This document shows positions 7,121 through 43,700 of a DNA stretch of 64,000 nt, in pieces. Location of the stretch: the NCBI GenBank assembly GCA_964016885.1, contig OZ024744.1, forward strand, positions 131,316,001 to 131,380,000, given 5' to 3'. The position numbers and the translations under genes were made by a program. Each line of letters starts with the position of its first letter. Within the stretch, counting starts at the first letter, position 1. The notes beneath the pieces are model-generated. The model had not been told where the DNA came from and searched no databases. It saw only the letters and a program-made list of their open reading frames with translations. The stretch is from Eledone cirrhosa. Its lineage: Eukaryota.

Positions 7121-7654
7121 AAGTTAAGTTGGGGTTAAATTAAGTTGGGGTTAATTTAAGTTGGGGTTAAATCAAGTTGGGGTTAAGTTAAAGTGGGGTT
7201 AATTTAGTTGGGGTTAAGTTAAGTTGGGGCTAAGTTAAGTTGGGGCTAAGTTAAGTTGGGACTAAGTTAAGTTGGGGTTAAGTTAAGTTGGGGATAAGTT
7301 AAGTTGGGGTTAAGTTAAGTTGGGTTTAAGTTAAGTTGGGGTTAAGTTAAGTTGCGGTTAAGTTAAGTTGGTTAGTTAAGTTGAGTTTAAGTTAAGTTGG
7401 GGTTAATTTAAGTTGGGGTTAAGTTACGTTGGGGTTAAGTTAAGTTGGGGCTAAGTTAAGTTGGGGTTCAGTTAAGTTGGGGTTAAATCAATTTGGGGTT
7501 AAGTTGGGGTTAAATTAATTTGGGGTTAAGTTAAGTTGGGTTAAGTTAAGTTGGGGTTAAGTTAAGTTGGGGTTAAGTTAAGTTGGGGTTAAGTTAAGTT
7601 GGAGTTAAGTTAAGTTTGGGTTGAGTTAAGTTGGGGTTGAGTTAAATTGGGGTT

Positions 7655-9003
7655 AACTCCAACTTAAGTTAACCCCAACTTAACTTAACCCCAACTTCAC
7701 TCAACCCCAACTTAACTTAACCCCAACTTCACTCAACCCCAACTTAACTCAACCCCAACCTAACTTAACCCCAACTTCACTCAACCCCAACTTATCTTAA
7801 CCCCAACTTAATTTAACCCCATCTTAACCCCAACTTAACTTAACCCCAACTTAACTGAACCCCAACTTAACTTAACCCCAACTTAACTCAACCCCAACAT
7901 AACTTAAACCCAACTTAACTTAAACCCAACTTAACTTAACCCCAACTTAACTTAACCCCAACTTAACTCAACCCCAACTTAACTTAACCCCAACTTAACT
8001 CAGCCCCAACTTAACTCAGCCCCAACTTAACTAAGCCCCAACTTAACTTAACACCAACTTAACATAACCCCAACTTAACTTAACCCCAACTTAACTTAAC
8101 CCCAACTTAACTTAACCCCAATTTAAGTTGACCCCAACTTAAATTAACCCCACCTTAACTTAACCCCAACTTAACTTAACCCCAACTTAACTTAGCCCCA
8201 ACTTAACTTAGCCCCAACTTAACTTAGCCCCAACTTAACTTAACCCCAACTAAATTAACCCCAACTTAACTTAACCCCAACTTGATTTAACCCCAACTTA
8301 ATTTTAACCCCAAATTAACTTGACCCCAACTTAACTTAACCCCAACTTAACTTAACCCCAACTTAACTTAACCCCAACTTAATTTAACCCCAACTTAATT
8401 TAACCCCAACTTAACTTAAACCCAACTTAACTTTATCCCAACTTAACTTAACCCTAACTTAACTCAACCCCAACTTAACTCAACCCCAACTTAACTTAAC
8501 GCCAACTTAACTTAACCCCAACGTAACTTAACCCCAACTTCACTCAACCCCAACTTAACTCAACCCCAACTTAACTTAACCCCAACTTAACTTAACCCCA
8601 ACTTAACTTAACCACAAAGTTAACTTAACCCCAATTTAAATTAACCCCAACTTAACTTAACCCTAACTTAACTTAACCCCAACTTAACTTAGCCCCAACT
8701 TAACTTAGCCCCAACTTATCTTAGCCCCAACTTAACTTAACCCCAACTAAATTAACCCCAACTTAACTTAACCCCAACTTGACTTAACCCCAACTTAATT
8801 TTAACCCCAACTTAACTTGACCCCAACTTAACTTAACCCCAACTTAACTTAACCCCAACTTAACTCAACCCCAACTTAACTTAACCCCAACTTAACTTAA
8901 CCCCAAATTAACTTACCCAGAACTTAACTTACCCCCAACTTAACTTAACCCCAACTTAAGTTAAGACTAACTTAACTTAACCCCAACTTAACTTAACCCC
9001 GAA
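7655..9003 (-). repeat. Long C-rich block (1349 bp): type-B cassette start fused to the first arm of a large secondary inversion
   Basis: Begins with the type-B junction GGGGTT|AACTCCAACTTAAGTTAACCCC. Ends in CCCCGAA|TTTGGGG, the reverse complement of the usual right junction. Confidence 0.93.
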
Positions 9004-9348
9004 TTTGGGGTTAAGTTAAGTTGGGGTTAAGTTAAGTTGGGGTTAAGTCAAGTTGGGGTTAAGTTAAGTTGGGGTTAATTTAAGTTGGGGTTAATTTAAG
9101 TTGGGGTTAAGTTAATTTGTGGTTAAGTTAAGTTGGGGTTAAGTTAAGTTGGGGTTAAGTTAAGTCGAAGTTAAGTGAAGTCGGGGGTAAGTTAAGTTAG
9201 CGTTAAGTTAAGTTGGGGTTAAGTTAAGTTGGGGTTGAGTTAAGTTGGGGTTGAGTGAAGTTGGGGTTAAGTTAAGTTGGGGTTGAGTGAAGTTGGGGTT
9301 AAGTTAAGTTGGGGTTGAGTTAAGGTGGGGTTGAGTGAAGTTGGGGTT
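9004..9348 (+). repeat. Doubly inverted cassette (345 bp, G-rich): reverse complement of the cassette subtype at 34797 and 40366
   Basis: Contains GTCGAAGTTAAGTGAAGTCGG and TTAGCGTT, the reverse complements of CCGACTTCACTTAACTTCGAC and AACGCTAA in the 34797-35221 cassette. Confidence 0.92.
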
Positions 9349-10144
9349 AACCCCAACTTAACTTAACCACGAATTAACTTAACCCCAACTTAACTTAACC
9401 CCAACTTAACTTAACCCCAACTTAACTTAACCCCAAATTAATTTAACCCCAACTTAACCCCAACTTGACTTAACCCCAACTTAACTGAACCCCAAATTAA
9501 CTTAACCCCAACTTAACTTAACCCCAACTTAACTTAACCCCAACTTAACTTAACCCCAACTTAAAGTAACCCCAACTTAACTTAAACTCAACTTAACTAA
9601 CCAACTTAACTTAACCCCCATTTAAGTTGACCCCAACTTAAATTAACCCCACCTTAACTTAACCCCAACTTAACTTAACCCCAACTTAACTTAGCCCCAA
9701 CTTAACTTAGCCCCAACTTAACTTAGCCCCAACTTAACTTAACCCCAACTAAATTAACCCCAACTTAACTTAACCCCAACTTGACTTAACCCCAACTTAA
9801 TTTTAACCCCAACTTAACTTGACCCCAACTTAACTTAACCCCAACTTAACTTAACCCCAACTTAACTTACCCCCAACTTAACTTAACCCCAACTTAATTT
9901 AACCCCAACTTAACTTAAACACAACTTAACTTAACCCCAACTTAACTTAACCCTAAATTAACTCAACCCCAACTTAACTCAACCCCAACTTAAATAAACG
10001 CCAACTTAACTTAACCCCAACTTAACCCCAACTTAACTTAACCCCAACTTAACTTACCCAGAACTTAACTTACCCCCAACTTAACTTAACCCCAACTTAA
10101 GTTAAGCCTAACTTAACTTAACCCCAACTTAACTTAACCCCGAA
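9349..10144 (-). repeat. C-rich block (796 bp): second arm of the large secondary inversion
   Basis: Starts at GGGGTT|AACCCC followed by CCACGAATT (reverse complement of AATTCGTGG at ~34770). Ends in CCCCGAA|TTTGGGG. Confidence 0.93.
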
Positions 10145-11243
10145 TTTGGGGTTAAGTTAAGTTGGGGTTAATTTAAGTTGGGGTTAAGTTAAGTCGGGGT
10201 TAAGTTAAGTTGGGGGTAAGTTAAGTTGGGTGTGAGTTAAGTTGGGGTTAAGTTAATTTGTGGTTAAGTTAAGTTGGGGTTAAGTTAAGTTGGGGTTAAG
10301 TTAAGTTGGGGTTGAGTTAAGTTGGGGTTGAGTTAATTTAGGGTTAAGTTAAGTTGGGGTTAAGTTAAGTTGGGTTTAAGTTAAGTTGGGGTTAAATTAA
10401 GTTGGGGTTAAATTAAGTTGGGGTTAAGTTAAGTTGGGGGTAAGTTAAGTTGGGGGCAAGTTAAGTTGGGGTTAAGTTAAGTTGGGGTTAAATTAAGTTG
10501 GGGTTAAGTTTAGTTGGTGTTAAGTTAAGTTGGGGTTTATTTAAGTTGGGGTTAATTAAGTTGGGGCTGAGTTAAGTTGGGGCTGAATTAAGTTGGGGTT
10601 AAGTTAAGTTGGGGTTTAGTTAAGTTGGGGTTCAGTTAAGTTGGGGTTAAGTTGGGGTTAAATTAATTTGGGGTTAAGTTAAGTTGGGGTTTAGTTTAGT
10701 TGGGGTTAAATTAAGTTGGGGTTAATTTAAGTTGGGGTTAAGTTAAGTTGCGGGTAATTTACGTTGGGGTTAAGTTAAGTTGGGGTTAAGTTAAGTTGGG
10801 GTTAAGTTAAGTTGGGGGTAAGTTAAGTTGGGGGTAAGTTAAGTTGGGGGTAAGTTAAGTTGGGGTTAAGTTAAGTTGGGGTTAAGTTAAGTTAGGGTTA
10901 AGTTAAGTTGGGGTTGAGTTAAGTTGGGGTTAAGTTAAGTTGGGGTTATGTTAAGTTGGGGTTAAGTTAAGTTGGTTCGTTAAGTTGAGTTTAAGTTAAG
11001 TTGGGGTTAATTTCAGTTGGGGTTAAGTTAAGTTGGGGTTAAGTTAAGTTGGGGTTAAGTTAAGTTGGGGTTAAGTTAAGTTGGGGTTCAGTTAAGTTGG
11101 GGTTAAGTCAAGTTGGGGTTAAGTTGGGGTTAAATTAATTTGGGGTTAAGTTAAATTGGGGTTAAGTTAAGTTGTGGTTATGTTAAGTTGGGGTTAAGTT
11201 AAGTTGGGGTTAAGTTAATTTGTGGTTAAGTTAAGTTGTGGTT

Positions 11244-27861: not shown

Positions 27862-30762
27862 TTCGGGGTTAAGTTATGTTGGGGTTAAGTTAAGTTAGGC
27901 CTAACTTAAGTTGGAGTTAAGTTAAGTTGGGGGTAAGTTAAGTTGGGGGTAAGTTAAGTTGGGGTTAAGTTAAGTTGGGGTTAAGTTGGGGTTAAGTTAA
28001 GTTAGGGTTAAGTTAATTTGGGGTTGAGTTAAGTTGGGGTTAAGTTAAGTGGTGGTTATGTTAAGTTGGGGTGAAGTTAACTGGGGTTAATTTAAATTGG
28101 TGTTAAGTTAACTTTGTGGTTAAGTTAAGTTGGGGTTAAGTTAAGTTGGGGTTAAGTTAAGTTGGGGTTGAGTTAAGTTGGGGTTGAGTGAAGTTGGGGT
28201 TAAGTTAAGTTGGGGTTAATTTAAGTTGGGGTTAAGTTAAATCGGAGTTAAGTTAAGTTGGGGTTGAGTTAAGTTGGCGTTAATTTAAGTTGGGGCTAAG
28301 TTAAGTTGGGGTTAAGTTAAGTTGAGGTTAAGTTAAGTTGGGGTTGAGTTAAGTTGGGGTTGAGTTAATTTGGGGTTAAGTTAAGTTGGGGTTAAGTTAA
28401 GTTGGGTTTAAGTTAAGTTGGGGTTAAATTAAGTTGGCGTTAAATTAAGTTGGGGTTAAGTTAAGTTGGGGGTAAGATAAGTTGGGGGCAAGTTAAGTTG
28501 GGGTTAAGTTAAGTTGCGGTTAAATTAAGTTGGGGTTAAGTTAAGTTGGGGTTATATTAAGTCGGGGTTAAGTTAAGTTGGTGTTCATTTAAGTTGGGGT
28601 TAAGTTAAGTTTGGGTTAAGTTGGGGTTAAATTAAGTTGGGGTTAAGTTAAGTTGGGGTTAAGTTAAGTTGGGGTTAAGTTAAGTTGGGGTTCAGTTAAG
28701 TTGGGGTTAAGTTAAGTTGGGGTTAAGATGGGGTTAAATTAAGTTGGGGTTAAGTTAAGTTGGGGTTAAGTTAAATTGGGGTTAAGTTAAGTTGGGGTTA
28801 AGTTAAGTCGGGGTTAAGTTAAGTCGGGGTTAAGTTAAGTTAGGGTTAAGTTAAGTTGGAGTTAAGTTAAGTTGGGGTTGAGTTAAGTTGGGGTTGAGTT
28901 AAATTGGGGTGGAGTTAAGTTGGGGTTGAGTTAAGTTGGTGTTGAGTTAAGTTGGGGTTAAGTTAAGTTGGGGTTAAGTTAAGTTGCAGTTAAGTTAAGT
29001 TGAGGTTAAGTTAAGTTGGGGTTAAGTTAAGTTGGGGTTAAGTTAAGTTGGGGCTAAGTTAAGTTGGGGCTAAGTTAAGTTGGGGCTAAGTTAAGTTGGG
29101 GTTCAGTTAAGTTGGGGTTAAGTTAAGTTTGGGTTAAGTTGGGGTTAAATTAAGTTGGGGTTAAGTTAAGTTGGGGTTTAGTTAAGTTGGGGTTAAGTTA
29201 AGTTGGGGTTAATTTAAGTTGGGGTTAAGTTAAGTTGGGGTTAAGTTAAGTGGTAGTTATGTTAAGGTGGGGTTAAGTTAAGTTGGGGTTAATTTAAATT
29301 GGGGTTAAGTTAACTTTGTGGTTAAGTTAAGTTGGGGTTAAGTTAAGTTGGGGTTAAGTTAAGTTGGGGTTCAGTTAAGTTGCGGTTAAGTTAAGTTGGG
29401 GTTAAGTTAAGTTGGGGTTAAGTTAAGTTGGGGTTAAGTTAAGTTGGGGTCAAGTTAAGTTGGGGTTAAGTTAAGTTGGGGTTAAGTTAAGTTGGTTAGT
29501 TAAGTTGAGTTTAATTTAAGTTGGGGTTAATTTAAGTTGGGGCTAAGTTAAGTTGGGGTTAAGTTAAGTTGGGGTTAAGTTAAGTTGGGGTTAAGTTAAT
29601 TTGGGGTTCAGTTAAGTTGGGGTTAAGTCAAGTTGGGGTTAAGTTGGGGTTAAATTAATCTGGGGTTAAGTTATTGTTGGGGTTAAGTTAAGTTGGGGTT
29701 AAGTTAAGTTGGGGTTAAGTTAAGTTGGGGTTAAGTTAATTTGGGGTTGAGTTAATTTGGGGTTAAGTTAAGTTGGGGTTAAGTTAAGTTGGGTTTAAGT
29801 TAAGTTGGGGTTAAATTAAGTTGGGGTTAAATTAAGTTGGGGTTAAGTTAAGTTGGGGGTAAGTTAAGTTAGGGGCAAGTTAAGTTGGGGTTAAGTTAAG
29901 TTGGGGTTAAATTAAGTTGGGGTTACGTTAAGTTGGTGTTAAGTTAAGTTGGGGTTAATTTAAGTTGGGGTTAATGAAGTTGGGGTTAAGTTAAGTTGGG
30001 GTTAAGTTAAGTTGGGGTTAATTTAAGTTGGGATTGAGTTAAGTTGGGGTTAAGTTAAGTTGGGTTATATTAAGTTGAGGTTAAGTTAAGTTGGGGTTAA
30101 GTTAAGTTGGGGTTCAGTTAAGTTGCGGTTAAGTTAAGTTGGGGTTAAGTTAAGTTGGGGTTAAGTTAAGTTGGGGTTAAGTTAAGTTGGGGTCAAGTTA
30201 AGTTGGGGTTAAGTTAAGTTGGGATTAAGTTAAGTTGGGGTTAAGTTAAGTTGGGGTTAAGTTAAGTAGGGGTTAAGTTAAGTTGGGGTTAAGTTAAGTT
30301 GAGGTTAAGTTAAGTTGGAGTTAAATTAAGTTGGGGTTAATTTAAGTTGGGGTTAATTTAAGCTGGGGTTAAGTTAAGTTGGGGATAATTTAAGTTGGGG
30401 ATGAGTTAAGTTGGGGTTAAGTTAAGTTGGGTTTACGTTAAGTTGGGGTTAAGTTAAGTTGGGGTTAAGTTAAGTTGGTTAGTTAAGTTGAGTTTAAGTT
30501 AAGTTGGGGTTAATTTAAGTTGGGGTTAAGTTACGTTGGGGTTAAGTTAAGTTGGGGTTAAGTTAAGTTGGGGTTCAGTTAAGTTGGGGTTAAATCATGT
30601 TGGGGTTAAGTTGGGGTTAAATTAATTTGGGGTTAAGTTAAGTTGGGGTTAAGTTAAGTTGGGGTTAAGTTAAGTTGGGGTTAAGTTAAGTTGGGGTTAA
30701 GTTAAGTTGGAGTTAAGTTAAGTTTGGGTTGAGTTAAGTTGGGGTTGAGTTAAATTGGGGTT

Positions 30763-31251
30763 AACTCCAACTTAAGTTAACCCCAACTTAACTTAACCGC
30801 AACTTCACTCAACCCCAACTTAACATAACCCCAACTTCACTCAACCCCAACTTAACTCAACCCCAACTTAACTTAACCCCAACTTCACTCAACCCCAACT
30901 TATCTTAACCCCAACTTCACTCAACCCCAACTTAACTCAACCCCAACTTAACTTAACCCCAACTTAACTTAACCCTAACTTAACTTAACCCCGACTTAAC
31001 TTAACCTCGACTTAACTTAACCCCAACTTAATTTAACCCCAACTTAACTTAACCCCAACTTAACTTAACCACAAATTAACTTAACCCCAACTTCAATTAA
31101 CCCCAACTTAACTTAACCCCAACTTAACTTAACCCCAACTTAACTTAACCCCAACTTAACTCACACCCAACTTACCTTACCCCCAACTTAACTTAACCCC
31201 AACTTGACTTAACCCCAACTTAACTTAACCCCAACTTAACTTAACCCCAAA
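30763..31251 (-). repeat. Inverted satellite cassette, type B (489 bp)
   Basis: Near-identical to 27373-27861 at offset 3390, with duplicated flanks on both sides. Confidence 0.97.
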
Positions 31252-33269
31252 TTCGGGGTTAAGTTATGTTGGGGTTAAGTTAAGTTAGGCCTAACTTAAG
31301 TTGGAGTTAAGTTAAGTTGGGGGTAAGTTAAGTTGGGGGTAAGTTAAGTTGGGGTTAAGTTAAGTTGGGGTTAAGTTGGGGTTAAGTTAAGTTAGGGTTA
31401 AGTTAAGTTGGGGTTGAGTTAAGTTGGGGTTAAGTTAAGTGGTGGTTATGTTAAGTTGGGGTGAAGTTAACTGGGGTTAATTTAAATTGGTGTTAAGTTA
31501 ACTTTGTGGTTAAGTTAAGTTGGGGTTAAGTTAAGTTGGGGTTAAGTTAAGTTGGGGTTGAGTTAAGTTGAGGTTGAGTGAAGTTGGGGTTAAGTTAAGT
31601 TGGGGTTAATTTAAGTTGGGGTTAAGTGAAATCGGAGTTAAGTTAAGTTGGGGTTGAGTTAAGTTGGCGTTAATTTAAGTTGGGGCTAAGTTAAGTTGGG
31701 GTTAAGTTAAGTTGAGGTTAAGTTAAGTTGGGGTTGAGTTAAGTTGGGGTTGAGTTAATTTGGGGTTAAGTTAAGTTGGGGTTAAGTTAAGTTGGGTTTA
31801 AGTTAAGTTGGGGTTAAATTAAGTTGGGGTTAAATTAAGTTGGGGTTAAGTTAAGTTGGGGGTAAGATAAGTTGGTCGCAAGTTAAGTTGGGGTTAAGTT
31901 AAGTTGGGGTTAAATTAAGTTGGGGTTAAGTTAAGTTGGGGTTATATTAAGTCGGGGTTAAGTTAAGTTGGTGTTCATTTAAGTTGGGGTTAAGTTAAGT
32001 TTGGGTTAAGTTGGGGTTAAATTAAGTTGGGGTTAAGTTAAGTTGGGGTTAAGTTAAGTTGGGGTTAAGTTAAGTTGGGGTTAAGTTAAGTTGGGGTTAA
32101 TTTAAGTTGGGGTTAAGTTAAGTTGCGGGTAATTTAAGTTGGGGTTAAGTTAAGTTGGGGTTAAGTTAAGTTGGGGTTAAGTTAAGTTGGGGTTAAGGTA
32201 AGTTGGGGTTAAGTTAAGTTGGGGCTAAGTTAAGTTGGGGCTGAGTTAAGTTGGGGTTAAGTTAAGTTGGGGTTAAGTTAAGTTGGGGTTAAGTTAAGTT
32301 GGGGTTAAGTTAAGTTGGGGTTGAGTTAAGTTGGGGTTAAGTTAAGTAGGGGTAAGTTAAGTTGGGGTTCAGTTAAGTTGGGGTTAAGTTAAGTTGGGGT
32401 TAAGATGGGGTTAAATTAAGTTGGGGTTAAGTTAAGTTGGGGTTAAGTTAAGTTGGGGTTAAGTTAATTTGGGGTTAAGTTAAGTCGGGGTTAAGTTAAG
32501 TCGGGGTTAAGTTAAGTTAGGGTTAAGTTAAGTTGGAGTTAAGTTAAGTTGGGGTTGAGTTAAGTTGGGGTTGAGTTAAATTGGGGTTGAGTTAAGTTGG
32601 GGTTGAGTTAAGTTGGTGTTGAGTTAAGTTGGGGTTAAATTAAGTTGGGGTTAAATTAAGTTGGGGTTAAGTAAATTTGGGGGTAAGTTAAGTTGGGGGC
32701 AAGTTAAGTTGGGGCTAAGTTAAGTTGGGGTTAAATTAAGTTGGGGTTACGTTAAGTTGGTGTTAAGTTAAGTTGGGGTTAATTTAAGTTGGGGTTAATT
32801 AAGTTAGGGTTAAGTTAAGTTGGGGTTAAGTTAAGTTGGGGTTAATTTAAGTTGGGGTTGAGTTAAGTTAGGGTTAAGTTAAGTTGGGGTTTATTAAGTT
32901 GGGGTTAAGTTAAGTTGGGGTTAAGTTAAGTTGGGGTTCAGTTAAGTTGCGGTTAAGTTAAGTTGGGGTTAAGTTAAGTTGGGGTTAAGTTAAGTTGGGG
33001 TTAAGTTAAGTTGGGGTCAAGTTAAGTTGGGGTTAAGTTAAGTTGGGGTTAAGTTAAGTTGGGGTTAATTTAAGTTGGGGTTAAGTTAAGTTGGGGTTAA
33101 GTTAAGTTGGGGTTAATTTAAGTTGGGGTTAAGTTAAGTTGGGGTTCAGTTAAGTTGGGGTTAAGTCAAGTTGGGGTTAAGTTGGGGTTAAATTAATTTG
33201 GGGTTAAGTTAAGTTGGGGTTAAGTTAAGTTGGGGTTATTTTAAGTTGGGGTTAAGTTAAGTTGTGGTT

Positions 33270-33694
33270 AACCCCAACTTCACTCAACCCCACCTTAACT
33301 CAACCCCAACTTAACTTAACCCCAACTTCACTCAACCCCAACTTAACTTAACCCCAACTTCACTCAACCCCAACTTAAATCAACCCCAACTTAACATAAC
33401 CCCAACTTAACTTAACCCTAACTTAACTTAACCCCGACTTAACTTAACTTCGACTTAACTTAACCCCAACTTAACTTAACCCCAACTTAACTTAACCCCA
33501 ACTTAACTTAACCACAAATTAACTTAACCCCAACTTAAATTAACCCCAACTTAAATTAACCCCAACTTAACTTAACCCCAACTTAACTTAACCCCAACTT
33601 AACTCACACCCAACTTAACTTACCCCCAACTTAACTTAACCCCAACTTGACTTAACCCCAAATTAACTTAACCCCAACTTAACTTAACCCCAAA
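33270..33694 (-). repeat. Inverted satellite cassette, type A (425 bp)
   Basis: Junctions TGTGGTT|AACCCC and CCCCAAA|TTCGGGG. Confidence 0.97.
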
Positions 33695-34796
33695 TTCGGG
33701 GTTAAGTTAAGTTGGGGTTAAGTTAAGTTAGGCTTAACTTATGTTGGGGTTAAGTTAAGTTGGGGGTAAGTTAAGTTCTGGGTAAGTTAAGTTGGGGTTA
33801 AGTTAAGTTGGGGTTAAGTTGGGGTTAAGTTAAGTTAGGGTTAAGTTAAGTTGGGGTTGAGTTAAGTTGGGGTTAAGTTAAGTTAGGGTTAAGTTAAGTT
33901 GGGGTCAAGTTAAGTTGGGGTTAAAATTAAGTTGGGGTTAAGTCAAGTTGGGGCTAAGTTAAGTTGGGGCTAAGTTAAGTTGGGGCTACGTTAAGTTGGG
34001 GTTAAGTTAAGTTGGGGTTAAGTTAAGTTGGGGTTAATTTAAATTGGGGTTAAGTTAACTTTGTGGTTAAGTTAAGTTGGGGTAAAGTTAAGTTGGGGTT
34101 AAGTTAAGTTGGGGTTGAGTTAAGTTGGGGTTGATTCAAGTTGGGGTTAAGTTAAGTTGGGGTTAAGTTAAGTTGGCGTTTATTTAAGTTGGGGTTGAGT
34201 TAAGTTGGGGTTGAGTTAATTTAGGGTTAAGTTAAGTTGGGGTTAAGTTAAGTTGTGTTTAAGTTAAGTTGGGGTTAAATTAAGTTGGGGTTAAGTTAAG
34301 TTGGGGGTAAGTTAAGTTGGGGTTAAGTTAAGTTGTGGTTAAGTTAAGTTGGGGTTAAGTTAAGTTGGGGTCAAGTTAAGTTGGGGTTAAAATTAAGTTG
34401 GGGTTAAGTCAAGTTGGGGTTAAGTTAAGTTGGGGTTAATTTAGTTGGGGTTAAGTTAAGTTGGGGCTAAGTTAAGTTGGGGCTAAGTTAAGTTGCGGCT
34501 AAGTTAAGTTGGGGTTAAGTTAAGTTGGGGTTAAGTTAAGGTGGGGTTAATTTAAGTTGGGGTCAACTTAAATTGGGGTTAAGTTAAGTTGGTTAGTTAA
34601 GTTGAGTTTAAGTTAAGTTGGGGTTAATTTAAGTTGGGGTTAAGTTAAGTTGGGGTTAAGTTAAGTTGGGGTTAAGTTAAGTTGGGGTTAAGTTAATTTG
34701 GGGTTCAGTTAAGTTGGGGTTAAGTCAAGTTGGGGTTAAGTTGGGGTTAAATTAAGTTGGGGTTAAGTTAATTCGTGGTTAAGTTAAGTTGGGGTT

Positions 34797-35221
34797 AACC
34801 CCAACTTCACTCAACCCCACCTTAACTCAACCCCAACTTAACTTAACCCCAACTTCACTCAACCCCAATTTAACTTAACCCCAACTTCACTCAACCCCAA
34901 CTTAACTCAACCCCAACTTAACTTAACCCCAACTTAACTTAACGCTAACTTAACTTAACCCCGACTTCACTTAACTTCGACTTAACTTAACCCCAACTTA
35001 ACTTAACCCCAACTTAACTTAACCCCAACTTAACTTAACCACAAATTAACTTAACCCCAACTTAAATTAACCCCAACTTAAATTAACCCCAACTTAACTT
35101 AACCCCAACTTAACTTAACCCCAACTTAACTCACACCCAACTTAACTTACCCCCAACTTAACTTAACCCCAACTTGACTTAACCCCAACTTAACTTAACC
35201 CCAACTTAACTTAACCCCAAA
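34797..35221 (-). repeat. Inverted satellite cassette, type A with AATTCGTGG flank (425 bp)
   Basis: Perfect left junction AAGTTGGGGTT|AACCCCAACTT. Markers AACGCTAA and CCGACTTCAC. Confidence 0.97.
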
Positions 35222-38200
35222 TTCGGGGTTAAGTTAAGTTGGGGTTAAGTTAAGTTAGGCTTAACTTAAGTTGGGGTTAAGTTAAGTTGGGGGTAAGTTA
35301 AGTTCTGGGTAAGTTAATTTGGGGTTAAGTTAAGTTGGGGTTAAGTTGGGGTTAAGTTAAGTTAGGGTTAAGTTAAGTTGGGGTTGATTTAAGTTGGGGT
35401 TAAGTTAAGTTGGGGTTAAGTTAAGTTGGGGTCAAGTTAAGTTGGGGTTAAAATTAAGTTGGGGTTAAGTCAAGTTGGGGTTAACTTAAGTTGGGGTTAA
35501 TTTAGTTGGGGTTAAGTTAAGTTGGGGCTAAGATAAGTTGGGGCTAAGTTAAGTTGGGGCTAAGTTAAGTTGGGGTTAAGTTAAGTTAGGGTTAAGTTAA
35601 GTTGGGGTTAATTTAAATTGGGGTTAAGTTAACTTTGTAGCTAAGTTAAGTTGGGGTTAAGTTAAGTTGGGGTTAAGTTAAGTTGGGGTTGAGTTAAGTT
35701 GGGGTTGAGTGAAGTTGGGGTTGAGTTAAGTTGGGGTTGAGTTAATTTAGGGTTAAGTTAAGTTGGGGTAAAGTTAAGTTGTGTTTAAGTTAAGTTGGGG
35801 TTCAATTAAGTTGGGGTTAAATTAAGTTGGGGTTAAGTTAAGTTGGGGGAAAGTTAAGTTGGGGTTAAGTTAAGTTGGGGTTAAGTTAAGTTGGGGTTAA
35901 GTTAAGTTGGGGTCAAGTTAATTTGGGGTTAAAATTAAGTTGGGGTTAAATCAAGTTGGGGTTAAGTTAAGTTGGGGTTAATTTAGTTGGGGTTAAGTTA
36001 AGTTGGGGCTAAGTTAAGTTGGGGCTAAGTTAAGTTGGGGCTAAGTTAAGTTGGGGTTAAGTTAAGTTGGGGTTAAGTTAAGGTGGGGTTAATTTAAGTT
36101 GGGGTCAACTTAAATTGGGGTTAAGTTAAGTTGGGGTTAAGTTAAGTTGGGGTTAAGTTAAGTTGGGGTTAAGTTAAGTTGGTGTTAAGTTAAGTTGGGG
36201 CTTAGTTAAGTTGGGGCTGAGTTAAGTTGGGGCTGAGTTAAGTTGGGGTTAAGTTAAGTTGGGGTTGAGTTAAGTTGGGGTTAAGTTAAGTTGGGGTTAA
36301 GTTAAGTTGGGGTTAAGTTAAGTTGGGTTTAAGTTATGTTGGGGTTGAGTTAAGTTGGGGTTAAGTTAAGTTGGGGTTCAGTTAAGTTGGGGTTAAGTTA
36401 AGTTGGGGTTAAGATGGGGTTAAATTAAGTTGGGGTTAAGTTAAGTTGGGGTTAAGTTAAGTTGGGGTTAAGTTAAGTTGGGGTTAAGTTAAGTCGGGGT
36501 TAAGTTAAGTCGGGGTTAAGTTAAGTTAGGGTTAAGTTAAGTTGGGGCTAAGTTAAGTTGGGGCTAAGTTAAGTTGGGGCTAAGTTAAGTTGGGGTTCAG
36601 TTAAGTTGGGGTTAAGTTAAGTTTGGGTTAAGTTGGGGTTAAATTAAGTTGGGGTTAAGTTAAGTTGGGGTTTAGTTAAGTTGGGGTTAATTTAAGTTGG
36701 GGTTAATTTAAGTTGCGGTTAAGTTAAGTTGGGGTTAAGTTAAGTGGTGGTTATGTTAAGTTGGGGTTAAGTAAAGTTGGGGTTAATTTAAATTGGGGTT
36801 AAGTTAACTTTGTGGTTAAGTTAAGTTGGGGTTAAGTTAAGTTGGGGTTAATTTAAGTTGGGGTTAAGTTAAGTCGGGCTTAAGTTAAGTTGGGGTTGAG
36901 TTAAGTTGGGGTTAATTTAAGTTGGGGCTAAGTTAATTTGTGGTTAAGTTAAGTTGGGGTTAAGTTAAGTTGGGGTTAAGTTAAGTTGGGGTTGAGTTAA
37001 GTTGGGGTTGAGTTAATTTAGGGTTAAGTTAAGTTGGGGTTAAGTTAAGTTGGGTTTAAGTTAAGTTGGGGGTAAGTTAAGTTGGGGGCAAGTTAAGTTG
37101 GGGTTAAGTTAAGTTGGGGTTAAATTAAGTTGGGGTTAAGTTTAGTTGGTGTTAAGTTAAGTTGGGGTTTATTTAAGTTGGGGTTAATTAAGTTGGGGCT
37201 GAGTTAAGTTGGGGCTGAATTAAGTTGGGGTTAAGTTAAGTTGGGGTTGAGTTAAGTTGGGGTTAAGTTAAGTTGGGGTTAAGTTGAGTTGGGGTTAAGT
37301 TAAGTTGGGGTTTAGTTAAGTTGGGGTTCAGTTAAGTTGGGGTTAAGTTGGGGTTAAATTAATTTGGGGTTAAGTTAAGTTGGGGTTTAGTTTAGTTGGG
37401 GTTAAATTAAGTTGGAGTTAATTTAAGTTGGGGTTAAGTTAAGTTGCGGGTAATTTAAGTTGGGGTTAAGTTAAGTTGGGGTTAAGTTAAGTTGGGGGTA
37501 AGTTAAGTTGGGGGTAAGTTAAGTTGGGGGTAAGTTAAGTTGGGGTTAAGTTAAGTTGGGGTTAAGTTAAGTTAGGGTTAAGTTAAGTTGGGGTTGAGTT
37601 AAGTTGGGGTTAAGTTAAGTTGGGGTTATGTTAAGTTGGGGTTAAGTTAAGTTGGTTCGTTAAGTTGAGTTTAAGTTAAGTTGGGGTTAATTTAAGTTGG
37701 GGTTAAGTTAAGTTGGGGTTAAGTTAAGTTGGGGTTAATTTAAATTGGGGTTAAGTTAACTTTGTGGCTAAGTTAAGTTGGGGTTAAGTTAAGTTGGGGT
37801 TAAGTTAAGTTGGGGTTGAGTTAAGTTGGGGTTGAGTGAAGTTGGGGTTAAGTTACGTTGGGGTTAAGTTAAGTTGGCGTTAAGTTAAGTTGGGGTTGAG
37901 TTAAGTTTGGGTTGAGTTAATTTAGGGTTAAGTTAAGTTGGGGTAAAGTTAAGTTGGGTTTAAGTTAAGTTGGGGTTAAATTAAGTTGGGGTTAAATTAA
38001 GTTGGGGTTAAGTTAAGTTGGGGGTAAGTTAAGTTGGGGTTAAGTTAAGTTGGGGTTAAGTTAAGTTGGGGTTAAGTTAAGTTGGGGTCAAGTTAATTTG
38101 GGGTTAAAATTAAGTTGGGGTTAAATCAAGTTGGGGTTAAGTTAAGTTGGGGTTAATTTAGTTGGGGTTAAGTTAAGTTGGGGCTAAGTTAAGTTGGGGC

Positions 38201-40365
38201 TAAGTTAAGTTGGGGCTAAGTTAAGTTGGGGTTATGTTAAGTTGGGGTTAAGTTAAGGTGGGGTTAATTTAAGTTGGGGTCAACTTAAATTGGGGTTAAG
38301 TTAAGTTGGGGTTAAGTTAAGTTGGGGTTAAGTTAAGTTGGGGTTAAGTTAAGTTGGTGTTAAGTTAAGTTGGGGCTTAGTTAAGTTGGGGCTGAGTTAA
38401 GTTGGGGCTGAGTTAAGTTGGGGTTAAGTTAAGTTGGGGTTGAGTTAAGTTGGGGTTAAGTTAAGTTGGGGTTAAGTTAAGTTGGGGTTAAGTTAAGTTG
38501 GGTTTAAGTTATGTTGGGGTTGAGTTAAGTTGGGGTTAAGTTAAGTTGGGGTTCAGTTAAGTTGGGGTTAAGTTAAGTTGGGGTTAAGATGGGGTTAAAT
38601 TAAGTTGGGGTTAAGTTAAGTTGGGGTTAAGTTAAGTTGGGGTTAAGTTAAGTTGGGGTTAAGTTAAGTCGGGGTTAAGTTAAGTCGGGGTTAAGTTAAG
38701 TTAGGGTTAAGTTAAGTTGGAGTTAAGTTAAGTTGGGGTTGAGTTAAGTTGGGGTTGAGTTAAATTGGGGTGGAGTTAAGTTGGGGTTAAGTTAAGTTGG
38801 TGTTGAGTTAAGTTGGGGTTAAGTTAAGTTGGGGTTAAGTTAAGTGCAGTTAAGTTAAGTTGAGGTTAAGTTATGTAGGGGTTAAGTTAAGTTGGGGTTA
38901 AGTTAAGTTGGGGCTAAGTTAAGTTGGGGCTAAGTTAAGTTGGGGCTAAGTTAAGTTGGGGTTCAGTTAAGTTGGGGTTAAGTTAAGTTTGGGTTAAGTT
39001 GGGGTTAAATTAAGTTGGGGTTAAGTTAAGTTGGGGTTAAGTTAAGTTGGGGTTAAGTTAAGTTGGGGTTAAGTTAAGTCGGGGTTAAGTTAAGTCGGGG
39101 TTAAGTTAAGTTAGGGTTAAGTTAAGTTGGAGTTAAGTTAAGTTGGGGTTGAGTTAAGTTGGGGTTGAGTTAAATTGGGGTGGAGTTAAGTTGGGGTTGA
39201 GTTAAGTTGGTGTTGAGTTAAGTTGGGGTTAAGTTAAGTTGGGGTTAAGTTAAGTTGCAGTTAAGTTAAGTTGAGGTTAAGTTAAGTTGGGGTTAAGTTA
39301 AGTTGGGGTTAAGTTAAGTTGGGGCTAAGTTAAGTTGGGGCTAAGTTAAGTTGGGGCTAAGTTAAGTTGGGGTTCAGTTAAGTTGGGGTTAAGTTAAGTT
39401 TGGGTTAAGTTGGGGTTAAATTAAGTTGGGGTTAAGTTAAGTTGGGGTTTAGTTAAGTTGGGGTTAAGTTAAGTTGGGGTTAATTTAAGTTGGCGTTAAG
39501 TTAAGTTGGGGTTAAGTTGGCGTTAAGTTAAGTTGGGGTTGAATTAAGTTGGGGTTGAGTTAATTTAGGGTTAAGTTAAGTTGGGGTTAAGTTAAGTTGG
39601 GGTTAATTTAAATTGGGGTTAAGTTAACTTTGTGGTTAAGTTAAGTTGGGGTAAAGTTAAGTTGGGGTTAAGTTAAGTTGGGGTTGAGTTAAGTTGGGGT
39701 TGAGTCAAGTTGGGGTTAAGTTAAGTTGGGGTTAAGTTAAGTTGGCGTTTATTTAAGTTGGGGTTGAGTTAAGTTGGGGTTGAGTTAATTTAGGGTTAAG
39801 TTAAGTTGGGGTTAAGTTAAGTTGTGTTTAAGTTAAGTTGGGGTTAAATTAAGTTGGGGTTAAGTTAAGTTGGGGGTAAGTTAAGTTGGGGTTAAGTTAA
39901 GTTGGGGTTAAGTTAAGTTGGGGTTAAGTTAAGTTGGGGTCAAGTTAAGTTGGGGTTAAAATTAAGTTGGGGTTAAGTCAAGTTGGGGTTAAGTTAAGTT
40001 GGGGTTAATTTAGTTGGGGTTAAGTTAAGTTGGGGCTAAGTTAAGTTGGGGCTAAGTTAAGTTGCGGCTAAGTTAAGTTGGGGTTAAGTTAAGTTGGGGT
40101 TAAGTTAAGGTGGGGTTAATTTAAGTTGGGGTCAACTTAAATTGGGGTTAAGTTAAGTTGGTTAGTTAAGTTGAGTTTAAGTTAAGTTGGGGTTAATTTA
40201 AGTCGGGGTTAAGTTAAGTTGGGGTTAAGTTAAGTTGGGGTTAAGTTAAGTTGGGGTTAAGTTAATTTGGGGTTCAGTTAAGTTGGGGTTAAGTCAAGTT
40301 GGGGTTAAGTTGGGGTTAAATTAAGTTGGGGTTAAGTTAATTCGTGGTTAAGTTAAGTTGGGGTT

Positions 40366-40790
40366 AACCCCAACTTCACTCAACCCCACCTTAACTCAAC
40401 CCCAACTTAACTTAACCCCAACTTCACTCAACCCCAACTTAACTTAACCCCAACTTCACTCAACCCCAACTTAACTCAACCCCAACTTAACTTAACCCCA
40501 ACTTAACTTAACGCTAACTTAACTTAACCCCGACTTCACTTAACTTCGACTTAACTTAACCCCAACTTAACTTAACCCCAACTTAACTTAACCCCAACTT
40601 AACTTAACCACAAATTAACTTAACCCCAACTTAAATTAACCCCAACTTAAATTAACCCCAACTTAACTTAACCCCAACTTAACTTAACCCCAACTTAACT
40701 CACACCCAACTTAACTTACCCCCAACTTAACTTAACCCCAACTTGACTTAACCCCAACTTAACTTAACCCCAACTTAACTTAACCCCAAA
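40366..40790 (-). repeat. Inverted satellite cassette, duplicate of 34797-35221 (425 bp)
   Basis: Offset 5569. Flank markers GTTGCGGCT (34492 / 40061) and ATTCGTGG (34771 / 40340) show the same offset. Confidence 0.97.
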
Positions 40791-43700
40791 TTCGGGGTTA
40801 AGTTAAGTTGGGGTTAAGTTAAGTTAGGCTTAACTTAAGTTGGGGTTAAGTTAAGTTGGGGTTATGTTAAGTTGGGGTTAAGTTAAGTTGGTTCGTTAAG
40901 TTGAGTTTAAGTTAAGTTGGGGTTAATTTAAGTTGGGGTGAAGTTAAGTTGGGGTTAAGTTAAGTTGGGGTTAATTTAAATTGGGGTTAAGTTAACTTTG
41001 TGGCTAAGTTAAGTTGGGGTTAAGTTAAGTTGGGGTTAAGTTAAGTTGGGGTTGAGTTAAGTTGGGGTTGAGTGAAGTTGGGGTTAAGTTACGTTGGGGT
41101 TAAGTTAAGTTGGCGTTAAGTTAAGTTGGGGTTGAGTTAAGTTTGGGTTGAGTTAATTTAGGGTTAAGTTAAGTTGGGGTAAAGTTAAGTTGGGTTTAAG
41201 TTAAGTTGGGGTTAAATTAAGTTGGGGTTAAATTAAGTTGGGGTTAAGTTAAGTTGGGGGTAAGTTAAGTTGGGGTTAAGTTAAGTTGGGGTTAAGTTAA
41301 GTTGGGGTTAAGTTAAGTTGGGGTCAAGTTAATTTGGGGTTAAAATTAAGTTGGGGTTAAATCAAGTTGGGGTTAAGTTAAGTTGGGGTTAATTTAGTTG
41401 GGGTTAAGTTAAGTTGGGGCTAAGTTAAGTTGGGGCTAAGTTAAGTTGGGGCTAAGTTAAGTTGGGGTTAAGTTAAGTTGGGGTTAAGTTAAGGTGGGGT
41501 TAATTTAAGTTGGGGTCAACTTAAATTGGGGTTAAGTTAAGTTGGGGTTAAGTTAAGTTGGGGTTAAGTTAAGTTGGGGTTAAGTTAAGTTGGTGTTACG
41601 TTAAGTTGGGGCTTAGTTAAGTTGGGGCTGAGTTAAGTTGGGGCTGAGTTAAGTTGGGGTTAAGTTAAGTTGGGGTTGAGTTAAGTTGGGGTTAAGTTAA
41701 GTTGGGGTTAAGTTAAGTTGGGGTTAAGTTAAGTTGGGTTTAAGTTATGTTGGGGTTGAGTTAAGTTGGGGTTAAGTTAAGTTGGGGTTCAGTTAAGTTG
41801 GGGTTAAGTTAAGTTGGGGTTAAGATGGGGTTAAATTAAGTTGGGGTTAAGTTAAGTTGGGGTTAAGTTAAGTTGGGGTTAAGTTAAGTTGGGGTTAAGT
41901 TAAGTCGGGGTTAAGTTAAGTCGGGGTTAAGTTAAGTTAGGGTTAAGTTAAGTTGGAGTTAAGTTAAGTTGGGGTTGAGTTAAGTTGGGGTTGAGTTAAA
42001 TTGGGGTGGAGTTAAGTTGGGGTTAAGTTAAGTTGGTGTTGAGTTAAGTTGGGGTTAAGTTAAGTTGGGGTTAAGTTAAGTGCAGTTAAGTTAAGTTGAG
42101 GTTAAGTTATGTAGGGGTTAAGTTAAGTTGGGGTTAAGTTAAGTTGGGGCTAAGTTAAGTTGGGGCTAAGTTAAGTTGGGGCTAAGTTAAGTTGGGGTTC
42201 AGTTAAGTTGGGGTTAAGTTAAGTTTGGGTTAAGTTGGGGTTAAATTAAGTTGGGGTTAAGTTAAGTTGGGGTTAAGTTAAGTTGGGGTTAAGTTAAGTT
42301 GGGGTTAAGTTAAGTCGGGGTTAAGTTAAGTCAGGGTTAAGTTAAGTTAGGGTTAAGTTAAGTTGGAGTTAAGTTAAGTTGGGGTTGAGTTAAGTTGGGG
42401 TTGAGTTAAATTGGGGTGGAGTTAAGTTGGGGTTGAGTTAAGTTGGTGTTGAGTTAAGTTGGGGTTAAGTTAAGTTGGGGTTAAGTTAAGTTGCAGTTAA
42501 GTTAAGTTGAGGTTAAGTTAAGTTGGGGTTAAGTTAAGTTGGGGTTAAGTTAAGTTGGGGCTAAGTTAAGTTGGGGCTAAGTTAAGTTGGGGCTAACTTA
42601 AGTTGGGGTTCAGTTAAGTTGGGGTTAAGTTAAGTTTGGGTTAAGTTGGGGTTAAATTAAGTTGGGGTTAAGTTAAGTTGGGGTTTAGTTAAGTTGGGGT
42701 TAAGTTAAGTTGGGGTTAATTTAAGTTGGGGTTAAGTTAAGTTGGGGTTAAGTTGGCGTTAAGTTAAGTTGGGGTTGAATTAAGTTGGGGTTGAGTTAAT
42801 TTAGGGTTAAGTTAAGTTGGGGTTAAGTTAAGTTGGGTTTAAGTTAAGTTGGGGTTAAATTAAGTTGGGGTTAAATTAAGTTCGGGTTAAGTTAAGTTGG
42901 GGGTAAGTTAAGTTGGTGTTAAGTTAAGTTGGGGTTAAGTTAAGTTGGGGTTAAGTTAAGTTGGGGTCAAGTTAAGTTGGGGTTAAAATTAAGTTGGGGT
43001 TAAGTCAAGTTGGGGTTAAGTTAAGTTTGAGTTAATTTAGTTGGGGTTAAGTTAAGTTGGGGCTAAGTTAAGTTGGGGCTAAGGTAAGTTGGGGCTAAGT
43101 TAAGTTGGGGTTAAGTTAAGTTGGGGTTAAGTTAAGGTGGGGTTAATTTAAGTTGGGGTCAACTTAAATTGGGGTTAAGTTAAGTTGGGGTTAAGTTAAG
43201 TTGGGGTTAAGTTAAGTTGGAGTTAAGTTAAGTTGGGGTTAAGTTAAGTTGGTGTTAAGTTAAGTTGGGGCTAAGTTAAGTTGGGGCTGAGTTAAGTTGG
43301 GGCTGAGTTAAGTTGGGGTTAATTTAAGTTGGGGTTGAGTTAAGTTGGGGTTAAGTTAAGTTGGGGTTAAGTTAAGTTGGGGTTAAGTTAAGTTGGGGTT
43401 GAGTTAAGTTGGGGTTAAGTTAAGTTGGGGTTAAGTTAAGTTGGGGTTCAGTTAAGTTGGGGTTAAGTTAAGTTGGGGTTAAGATGGGGTTAAATTAAGT
43501 TGGGGTTAAGTTAAGTTGGGGTTAAGTTAAGTTGGGGTTAAGTTAAGTCGGGGTTAAGTTAAGTCGGGGTTAAGTTAAGTTAGGGTTAAGTTAAGTTGGA
43601 GTTAAGTTAAGTTGGGGTTGAGTTAAGTTGGGGTTGAGTTAAATTGGGGTGGAGTTAAGTTGGTGTTGAGTGAAGTTGGGGTTAAGTTACGTTGGGGTTA

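Follow-up and report, generated by a model that had tools for sequence, protein, structure and literature searches.

A satellite array with inverted cassettes

We analysed a 64,000-nucleotide stretch of DNA from Eledone cirrhosa (contig OZ024744.1, positions 131,316,001-131,380,000, of the 3.0-Gb genome assembly GCA_964016885.1), hereinafter the window, in which the element of interest is an inverted block of 2.5 kb (7797-10313 in window coordinates) embedded in satellite DNA. Tandem Repeats Finder describes the entire window as a single tandem array of a 16-bp unit, GGGGTTAAGTTAAGTT. The plus strand is G-rich across the window, and GC skew falls at each short C-rich interruption, 16 of which appear in a map of G and C runs. 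Fourteen of these are cassettes of 336-464 bp; the other two, at 7673-8997 and 9351-10138, with a 336-bp G-rich piece between them, make up the rearranged block. The same 16-bp monomer is found on both sides of each switch, in opposite orientations.

The comparison was extended to 864 kb of array around the window, which is the scope of the counts below unless another is given, and to a larger set of 1.464 Mb. In the 864 kb, 310 of 312 C-rich blocks span 123-468 bp. When the reversed segment was compared with the window by BLAST, all parts of the array resembled all others at 88-94%, so that BLAST matches are undiagnostic; edit-distance mapping of 128-bp and 256-bp pieces and anchored global alignment were used in its place. 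Lag autocorrelation yielded no higher-order period, as indels shift the register.

All switches from G-rich to C-rich sequence are centred on GGTTAACC and differ in a few lead-ins, that of the type-B cassettes being GGGGTTAACTCCAACTTAAGTTAACCCC. Across the array, cassette junctions group into few shared classes, which, together with the private markers of the cassettes, makes the cassettes look spread by tandem amplification of a higher-order repeat rather than by repeated inversion. Each of the two cassette junctions is a palindrome or close to one: GGGGTTAACCCC reads the same on both strands, and CCCCAAATTCGGGG is one change away from the perfect palindrome CCCCGAATTCGGGG, which occurs three times. 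The monomer contains the palindromes TTAA and AATT, and a strand switch at these would fit as the source of the first cassette.

Flipped cassette junctions

Fourteen of the 16 C-to-G junctions in the window read CCCCAAATTCGGGG; the exceptions, 8997-9007 and 10138-10148, carry the reverse-complement form, CCCCGAATTTGGGG. An earlier sequence-only reading of this DNA had placed flipped junctions at 9003/9004 and 10144/10145 and nowhere else, and this holds: exact CCCCGAATTTGGGG occurs only at 8997 and 10138, flipped C-to-G junctions number two among 312, and a 28-mer around the flipped junction occurs genome-wide twice in the forward orientation, both times in this block, and 148 times in reverse. 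Similarly, a cassette-private 31-mer marker is present 111 times in reverse and once forward. With a looser junction motif, 440 of the 443 junctions in the 1.464 Mb have the standard orientation and three are flipped, two of the three in this block.

The third flipped junction belongs to a C-rich block of 23.5 kb located about 640 kb downstream (OZ024744.1:131,964,588-131,988,061; 648588-672061 relative to the window). This block consists, in order, of 3012 bp of C-rich array, the junction CCCCGACTTAGGGC, a 171-bp G-rich flipped cassette, and 20,281 bp of C-rich array. Here, CCCCGACTTAGGGC differs at one position from the local standard junction in reverse complement; the left boundary of the block is GGGGTTATGTTAACTTAACCCC, a junction form not seen elsewhere, and a gap of 200 N is located about 700 bp short of the right end of the block.

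Switch points of the inverted block

At the left end, the sequence 7649-7810 lies within 1-4 edits of each of the 20 type-B cassettes, and no other cassette comes closer than 12 edits. The sequence follows the type-B cassettes at 27.4 and 30.8 kb to the T at 7796, matches the reverse-complemented array from 7797, and shows its first mismatch to the cassette at 7811. The switch overlap is thus 14 bp, set in roughly 88% similarity, without inserted bases; as some array copies carry the variant that makes 7796 seem cassette-specific, it may reach 28 bp if the local array copy that was lost had a GATAAG variant. At the right end, the flipped cassette matches six cassettes of 356 bp, located 36-252 kb upstream, without a difference over 10196-10313, and identity to the same-strand array is perfect from 10249, with an overlap of up to 65 bp and, again, no inserted bases. 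The proposed entry from inside a type-B cassette at about 7800 and the proposed exit from a flipped cassette straight into ordinary G-rich array are both borne out, each switch point falling within homology between cassette and array.

The same reading held that existing junctions had been reused and that no new breakpoint had been created. As regards breakpoints, this needs qualifying: a 47-mer spanning the left switch (a word across the 7783-7830 region) is unique in the genome, and the 101-mer 10230-10330 over the right switch is unique in the 864 kb, so that both switch points are real, new breakpoints, albeit cryptic.

The flipped remnant with which the block ends is 4 edits from the six 356-bp cassettes and 8-17 edits from the ends of type-B cassettes, and it differs from every cassette at 10172, 10177, 10190 and 10195. 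Directly after the second flipped junction, it contains a patch (10148-10212) that matches co-oriented array, and cassette-specific markers resume in 10213-10248. The patch could reflect conversion at a time when the remnant already ran in the direction of the array, or repair of a heteroduplex during the event.

Words of 31-43 bp over the left switch (7783-7821) are unique or nearly so in the 864 kb, yet have depths of 5500-9000 in contigs from three sequencing runs of one sample, which contain 0.51-0.60 of the sampled words. This depth exceeds that of a word with about 220 copies in the 864 kb, so that the same pair of monomer variants must be abundant elsewhere, in the rest of the array or on other chromosomes. 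The short words over the left switch are therefore not locus-specific, and contigs over it show nothing either way.

Closest paralogs of the inverted block

The reverse complement of 7797-10313 is collinear with 33526-36439, with 25 mismatches in 2421 aligned bases (98.97% identity) and eight indels, namely, six gaps in the block (338, 16, 16, 64, 27 and 32 bp) and two extras of 48 bp. The stretch after every cassette was used as an anchor and globally aligned to the reverse complement of the block; among the 454 anchors in 1.46 Mb, 33526-36439 ranks first, with a score of 2302; the next best scores 2249, and the median is 1695. The runner-up paralog, at 71.2-74.6 kb, has 48 mismatches. The proposal that positions from about 7800 to 10300 are a reverse-complement sister of about 33500-36440, with internal deletions, is hence correct as an observation.

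The segment at 33.5-36.4 kb is the closest of a family of many paralogs and has no private relation to the block. Of 2478 40-mers in the block, 2000 have at least 10 reverse-complement matches and 307 have none; the 19 with one or two such matches point, without exception, to places other than 33-36 kb. The window by itself had suggested that some 40-mers are common to the block and 33.5-36.4 kb alone, and none such exist in the 864 kb. In edit-distance mapping, many 128-bp and 256-bp pieces fit several paralogs equally well. The five pairs of supposedly rare markers on which the sister relation had been based were all recovered by coordinate; their reverse-complement partners occur 22, 1, 2, 2 and 2 times in the window, three of them also at 39.7-40.5 kb.

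A search for a structural twin of the block, that is, a cassette, a G-rich gap of 700-900 bp and a cassette of about 336-340 bp, found this layout in none of the 10 cassette pairs with such a gap. Among cassettes with the plain junction, 34799-35215 has a near-identical tandem paralog at 40368-40784 (compared over 34151-35347 and 39720-40861), and the two have about 650 bp of upstream array in common. The middle of the inverted block fits the 40368-40784 copy slightly better than 34799-35215 (0 versus 1 edit in two 128-bp pieces).

A proposed local origin of the block

Both flanks of the block map to the unit that contains its closest paralog. The left flank, 7297-7810, differs from 30404-30918 by 9 mismatches in 514 positions, and the right flank, 10389-11039, differs from 37021-37719 by 5 in 635, with 10284-10379 equal to 36964-37059 exactly. 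Divergence is similar in the left flank, the block and the right flank (1.75%, 1.03% and 0.79%, respectively), which points to one paralogous unit rearranged in place rather than to a later copy from 33.5-36.4 kb. Read on the 30.4-37.7 kb unit, the locus is direct to 30918, lacks about 2607 bp, runs inverted from 36439 to 33526, lacks about 489-554 bp more, and is direct again from about 36929-36994; the missing lengths are measured against this paralogous super-unit, not against an ancestral allele. Sequence is likewise missing by comparison with all 174 array copies of the marker that adjoins the left switch.

The content of the block likewise suggests a local source. Of the five anchors that score best for it, four are the first cassette to follow a type-B cassette, a type represented by only 20 of about 310 cassettes. 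Several type-B units consist of the 468-bp type-B cassette, 1.5-2.0 kb of array, a cassette, 1.0-1.1 kb of array, another cassette and further array. The inverted block is therefore the kind of sequence that natively comes after a type-B cassette. The 356-bp class to which the remnant belongs is the first cassette after type B in all seven upstream units, which fits a local origin of the remnant; this class is not present at 33.5 kb, where the 287-bp alignment block that covers the remnant (33526-33812) has 9 mismatches, compared to 4 edits to the 356-bp class.

Our preferred explanation, to which we give about an even chance, is that the 2.5-kb block would be a local super-unit rearranged in place by two homology-guided strand switches, with approximately 2.9 kb inverted and approximately 2.6 and 0.5 kb lost. 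The locus at 7.3-11.0 kb would have started as a tandem paralog of the present 30.4-37.7 kb unit, with a type-B cassette, array, a cassette, array, a cassette and array. While the DNA was being replicated or a break repaired, an end within the type-B cassette would have paired with array monomers about 5.5 kb onward, a pairing made possible by the fact that cassette and array already run in opposite orientations. This end would then have been extended backwards across one entire cassette and into the next, where the new strand, co-oriented with the array again, would have paired with the array about 0.5 kb beyond the first switch, with synthesis continuing from there. Given the homology at both switch points, the cassettes did act as inverted-homology handles in this event, as the sequence-only reading had proposed; the kilobase-scale copying from 33.5-36.4 kb that it attached to this role is not needed.

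Several observations weigh against this explanation. The uninverted allele of the locus, or an intermediate, was not seen, and the ancestral unit is deduced from paralogs. The type-B units are heterogeneous, with the required layout in only four of 20. Collinearity of the flanks is, taken alone, weak evidence, given that the 66-mer of the right flank is common (92 copies). Indels are frequent in the array (eight between the closest paralogs), so that reciprocal inversion followed by deletion is indistinguishable from a single event. Finally, Logan contigs from four runs cover only 31-105 bp on this stretch, too short to span the structure.

Table 1. Features of the rearranged block and its closest paralogous unit, in window coordinates
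Feature	Position	Strand	Basis or remark
G-to-C junction of the type-B cassette, GGGGTTAACTCCAACTTAAGTTAACCCC	7649..7676	+	19 exact copies in 864 kb, this one counted
Type-B cassette, retained left part (about 138 of the usual 468 bp)	7673..7810	+	Edit distances and alignments
Left switch interval, 14 bp, CTTAACCCCAACTT	7797..7810	.	Common to type-B cassette and reverse-complemented array; inserted bases 0
Inverted array, C-rich on the plus strand	7811..8997	-	Reverse complement collinear with 35225-36425
Flipped C-to-G cassette junction, CCCCGAATTTGGGG	8997..9010	-	Junction counts
Whole cassette, flipped and G-rich here, of the plain GGGGTTAACCCC junction type	9007..9346	-	Lacks 80 bp (16+64) relative to 34799-35215
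Palindromic junction, GGGGTTAACCCC	9343..9354	.	Reading unchanged by flipping
Inverted array	9351..10141	-	Reverse complement collinear with 33698-34791; lacks 338+16 bp, 48 bp extra
Second flipped C-to-G junction, CCCCGAATTTGGGG	10138..10151	-	Junction counts
Flipped remnant, 166 bp, right end of a cassette	10148..10313	-	Markers GGGGGTAAG and GGGTGTGAG on the plus strand only here
Patch within the remnant, matching co-oriented array and no cassette	10148..10212	+	65-mer with 16 exact forward and 0 reverse copies in 864 kb
Right switch interval, up to 65 bp	10249..10313	.	Common to flipped 356-bp-class cassette and same-strand array; inserted bases 0
Closest collinear paralog of the inverted block, normal orientation	33526..36439	+	Anchored global alignment
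Paralogous super-unit: type-B cassette, about 2.0 kb of array, cassette, about 1.1 kb of array, cassette, array	30404..37719	+	Block and both flanks map here

Alternative explanations

A simple reciprocal, balanced inversion in place was rejected. Such an exchange would involve no loss and would place the flipped rest of the type-B cassette at the far end; the remnant found there is not of type B. Balanced non-allelic homologous recombination (NAHR) also fails on the joins, the left one having only 14 bp of perfect identity, with no long, highly identical inverted repeats. Among 174 array copies of the marker beside the left switch, none is followed by the right-flank 66-mer within 569 bp, that is, no paralog joins both array sides; and there is no extant cassette that unites the type-B left part with the right part seen here. 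What is left is a single double-switch event or a balanced inversion followed by deletion of the second junction. In the latter scheme, the type-B cassette would first have recombined reciprocally with inverted-homologous array about 5.5 kb downstream, inverting the whole interval; an unequal exchange between the flipped cassette, by then co-oriented with the array, and the array would later have deleted approximately 3.2 kb including the second inversion junction. The end product would be the same as that of the in-place single event, indels of 16-338 bp are frequent between paralogs, and the perfect identity of up to 65 bp between direct repeats at the right switch suits unequal exchange. 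The scheme nevertheless takes two events, the deletion must remove exactly the reciprocal junction, and an intermediate with three flipped junctions is absent from the 1.46 Mb. Moreover, the identity available to the first exchange would be 14 bp, set in roughly 88% homeology, and such a length is short for homologous recombination. The single event is preferred because it takes fewer steps and because 14 bp of identity in approximately 88% similarity suits template switching or annealing better than homologous exchange. We regard the two-step route as unlikely, if worth keeping in mind, and note that a study of mouse centromeric satellites proposes NAHR as the mechanism of their inversions (PMC12583555).

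The block might instead be an inverted duplicate of 33.5-36.4 kb, or of another far paralog, inserted into a type-B cassette through recombination or template switching that linked distant sites. That 33526-36439 is the best collinear match of all anchors, and that entry and exit both fall within cassette/array homology, would be expected of such a copy. However, the block is no nearer to 33.5-36.4 kb than the flanks are to the flanks of that unit, the pair has no exclusive 40-mers while the 307 noted above are private to the block, the cassette class of the remnant is missing at the supposed source, and the joining of a type-B recipient to a donor that natively follows type B would be a coincidence; a distant copy thus appears distinctly improbable. 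An assembly or library artefact, with a chimeric or misoriented piece in a satellite that is hard to assemble, draws some plausibility from the length of the array (at least 5 Mb) and from the gap near the end of the only other block with a flipped junction in the 1.46 Mb. Still, the window contains no N, the block is not an exact reverse copy of any assembled sequence, as its mismatches, indels and unmatched 40-mers attest, and the 14-65 bp of identity at the joins should be much too little for accurate long reads to be mis-joined by overlap. We give an artefact only a very small chance.

A broader proposal is that inversion begets inversion: each cassette would be a standing site of inverted homology, repair or replication would repeatedly flip and trim kilobase units, and the present block and the 23.5-kb block 640 kb away would be survivors of a frequent process. 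This we consider quite improbable. A self-propagating inversion mechanism, as the sequence-only reading had envisaged, is hard to reconcile with three flipped motifs, confined to two blocks, against 440 in the standard orientation. The rearrangement is more likely to have been one rare event, with the cassettes probably multiplied by tandem amplification of the higher-order repeat and not by this route.

The surrounding array

From 128.0 to 133.0 Mb of OZ024744.1 (128,000,001-133,002,000), every 2-kb sample carries the 16-bp satellite, which gives the minimum length of the array cited above. The sample at 133.0 Mb is entirely in the opposite orientation, with 76 C-type words and no G-type words, indicating a large-scale change of orientation somewhere within 132.2-133.0 Mb. 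Between 131.99 and 132.18 Mb (approximately 696-864 kb relative to the window), an AT-rich non-satellite element of about 0.6-1.2 kb breaks into the array at many places; it consists of short internal repeats around TTTTTCGAAAA and is spaced near-regularly, as if part of a higher-order unit. A word search of the literature (octopus satellite DNA, centromere) returned nothing relevant to this 16-bp satellite; the sequence of the repeat itself was not searched.

Relation to known rearrangements and implications

Neither strand switches within satellites nor inversions flanked by deletions are new, and the block described here adds a further case, at base resolution, from a satellite with a 16-bp unit. 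In the passages considered of the respective studies, strand switches within satellite arrays are described for human HSat3, beta-satellite and divergent alpha-satellite, with more than 200 in HSat3 and beta-satellite arrays and counts that scale with array length (bioRxiv 10.1101/2021.07.12.452052; see also bioRxiv 10.64898/2026.07.22.740206), which suggests that the switches are amplified along with the array; for mouse minor satellite, inversions are described as frequent, with NAHR proposed (PMC12583555). Like those arrays, to go by these passages, the present one contains one monomer family in both orientations. Unlike them, it is built of a 16-bp monomer, and its switches are short cassettes, with few shared junction classes, built into a higher-order repeat. 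Furthermore, the unit that was rearranged here already held cassettes, so that old junctions reappear flipped; nested events resolved to the base are not described in the passages on human and mouse satellites.

Inversions with flanking deletions (delINVdel, or 'Del(s)+Inv') are a described class (PMC5338099, in part) and have been attributed to template switching by FoSTeS (fork stalling and template switching) or MMBIR (microhomology-mediated break-induced replication), with 3-25 bp of microhomology (PMC3439969, in part). As far as these excerpts go, the block resembles that class in that sequence would have been lost at either end of the inverted segment, and in that identity at the joins is short, with no long perfect repeats. 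It differs in that the deletions are gauged from paralogous units, not from an ancestral allele, and in that the identity at the joins comes from the pre-existing inverted cassettes of the array itself, not from chance microhomology. NAHR between inverted repeats, such as the inverted low-copy repeats of human genomic disorders, yields simple balanced inversions. The block shares with these the inverted homologous sequences at both breakpoints, but its product is unbalanced relative to any paralog, and one join has only 14 bp of perfect identity.

No functional consequence of the block is evident. Its significance lies in showing that an array that already holds inverted blocks can rearrange again without a new kind of strand-switch junction; with the true breakpoints hidden in homology, maps of orientation alone would miss them. 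At the same time, most of the several hundred strand switches fall into few shared classes, which fits amplification of a few old events, with secondary events being rare. This bears on how strand-switch counts in satellites are to be read.

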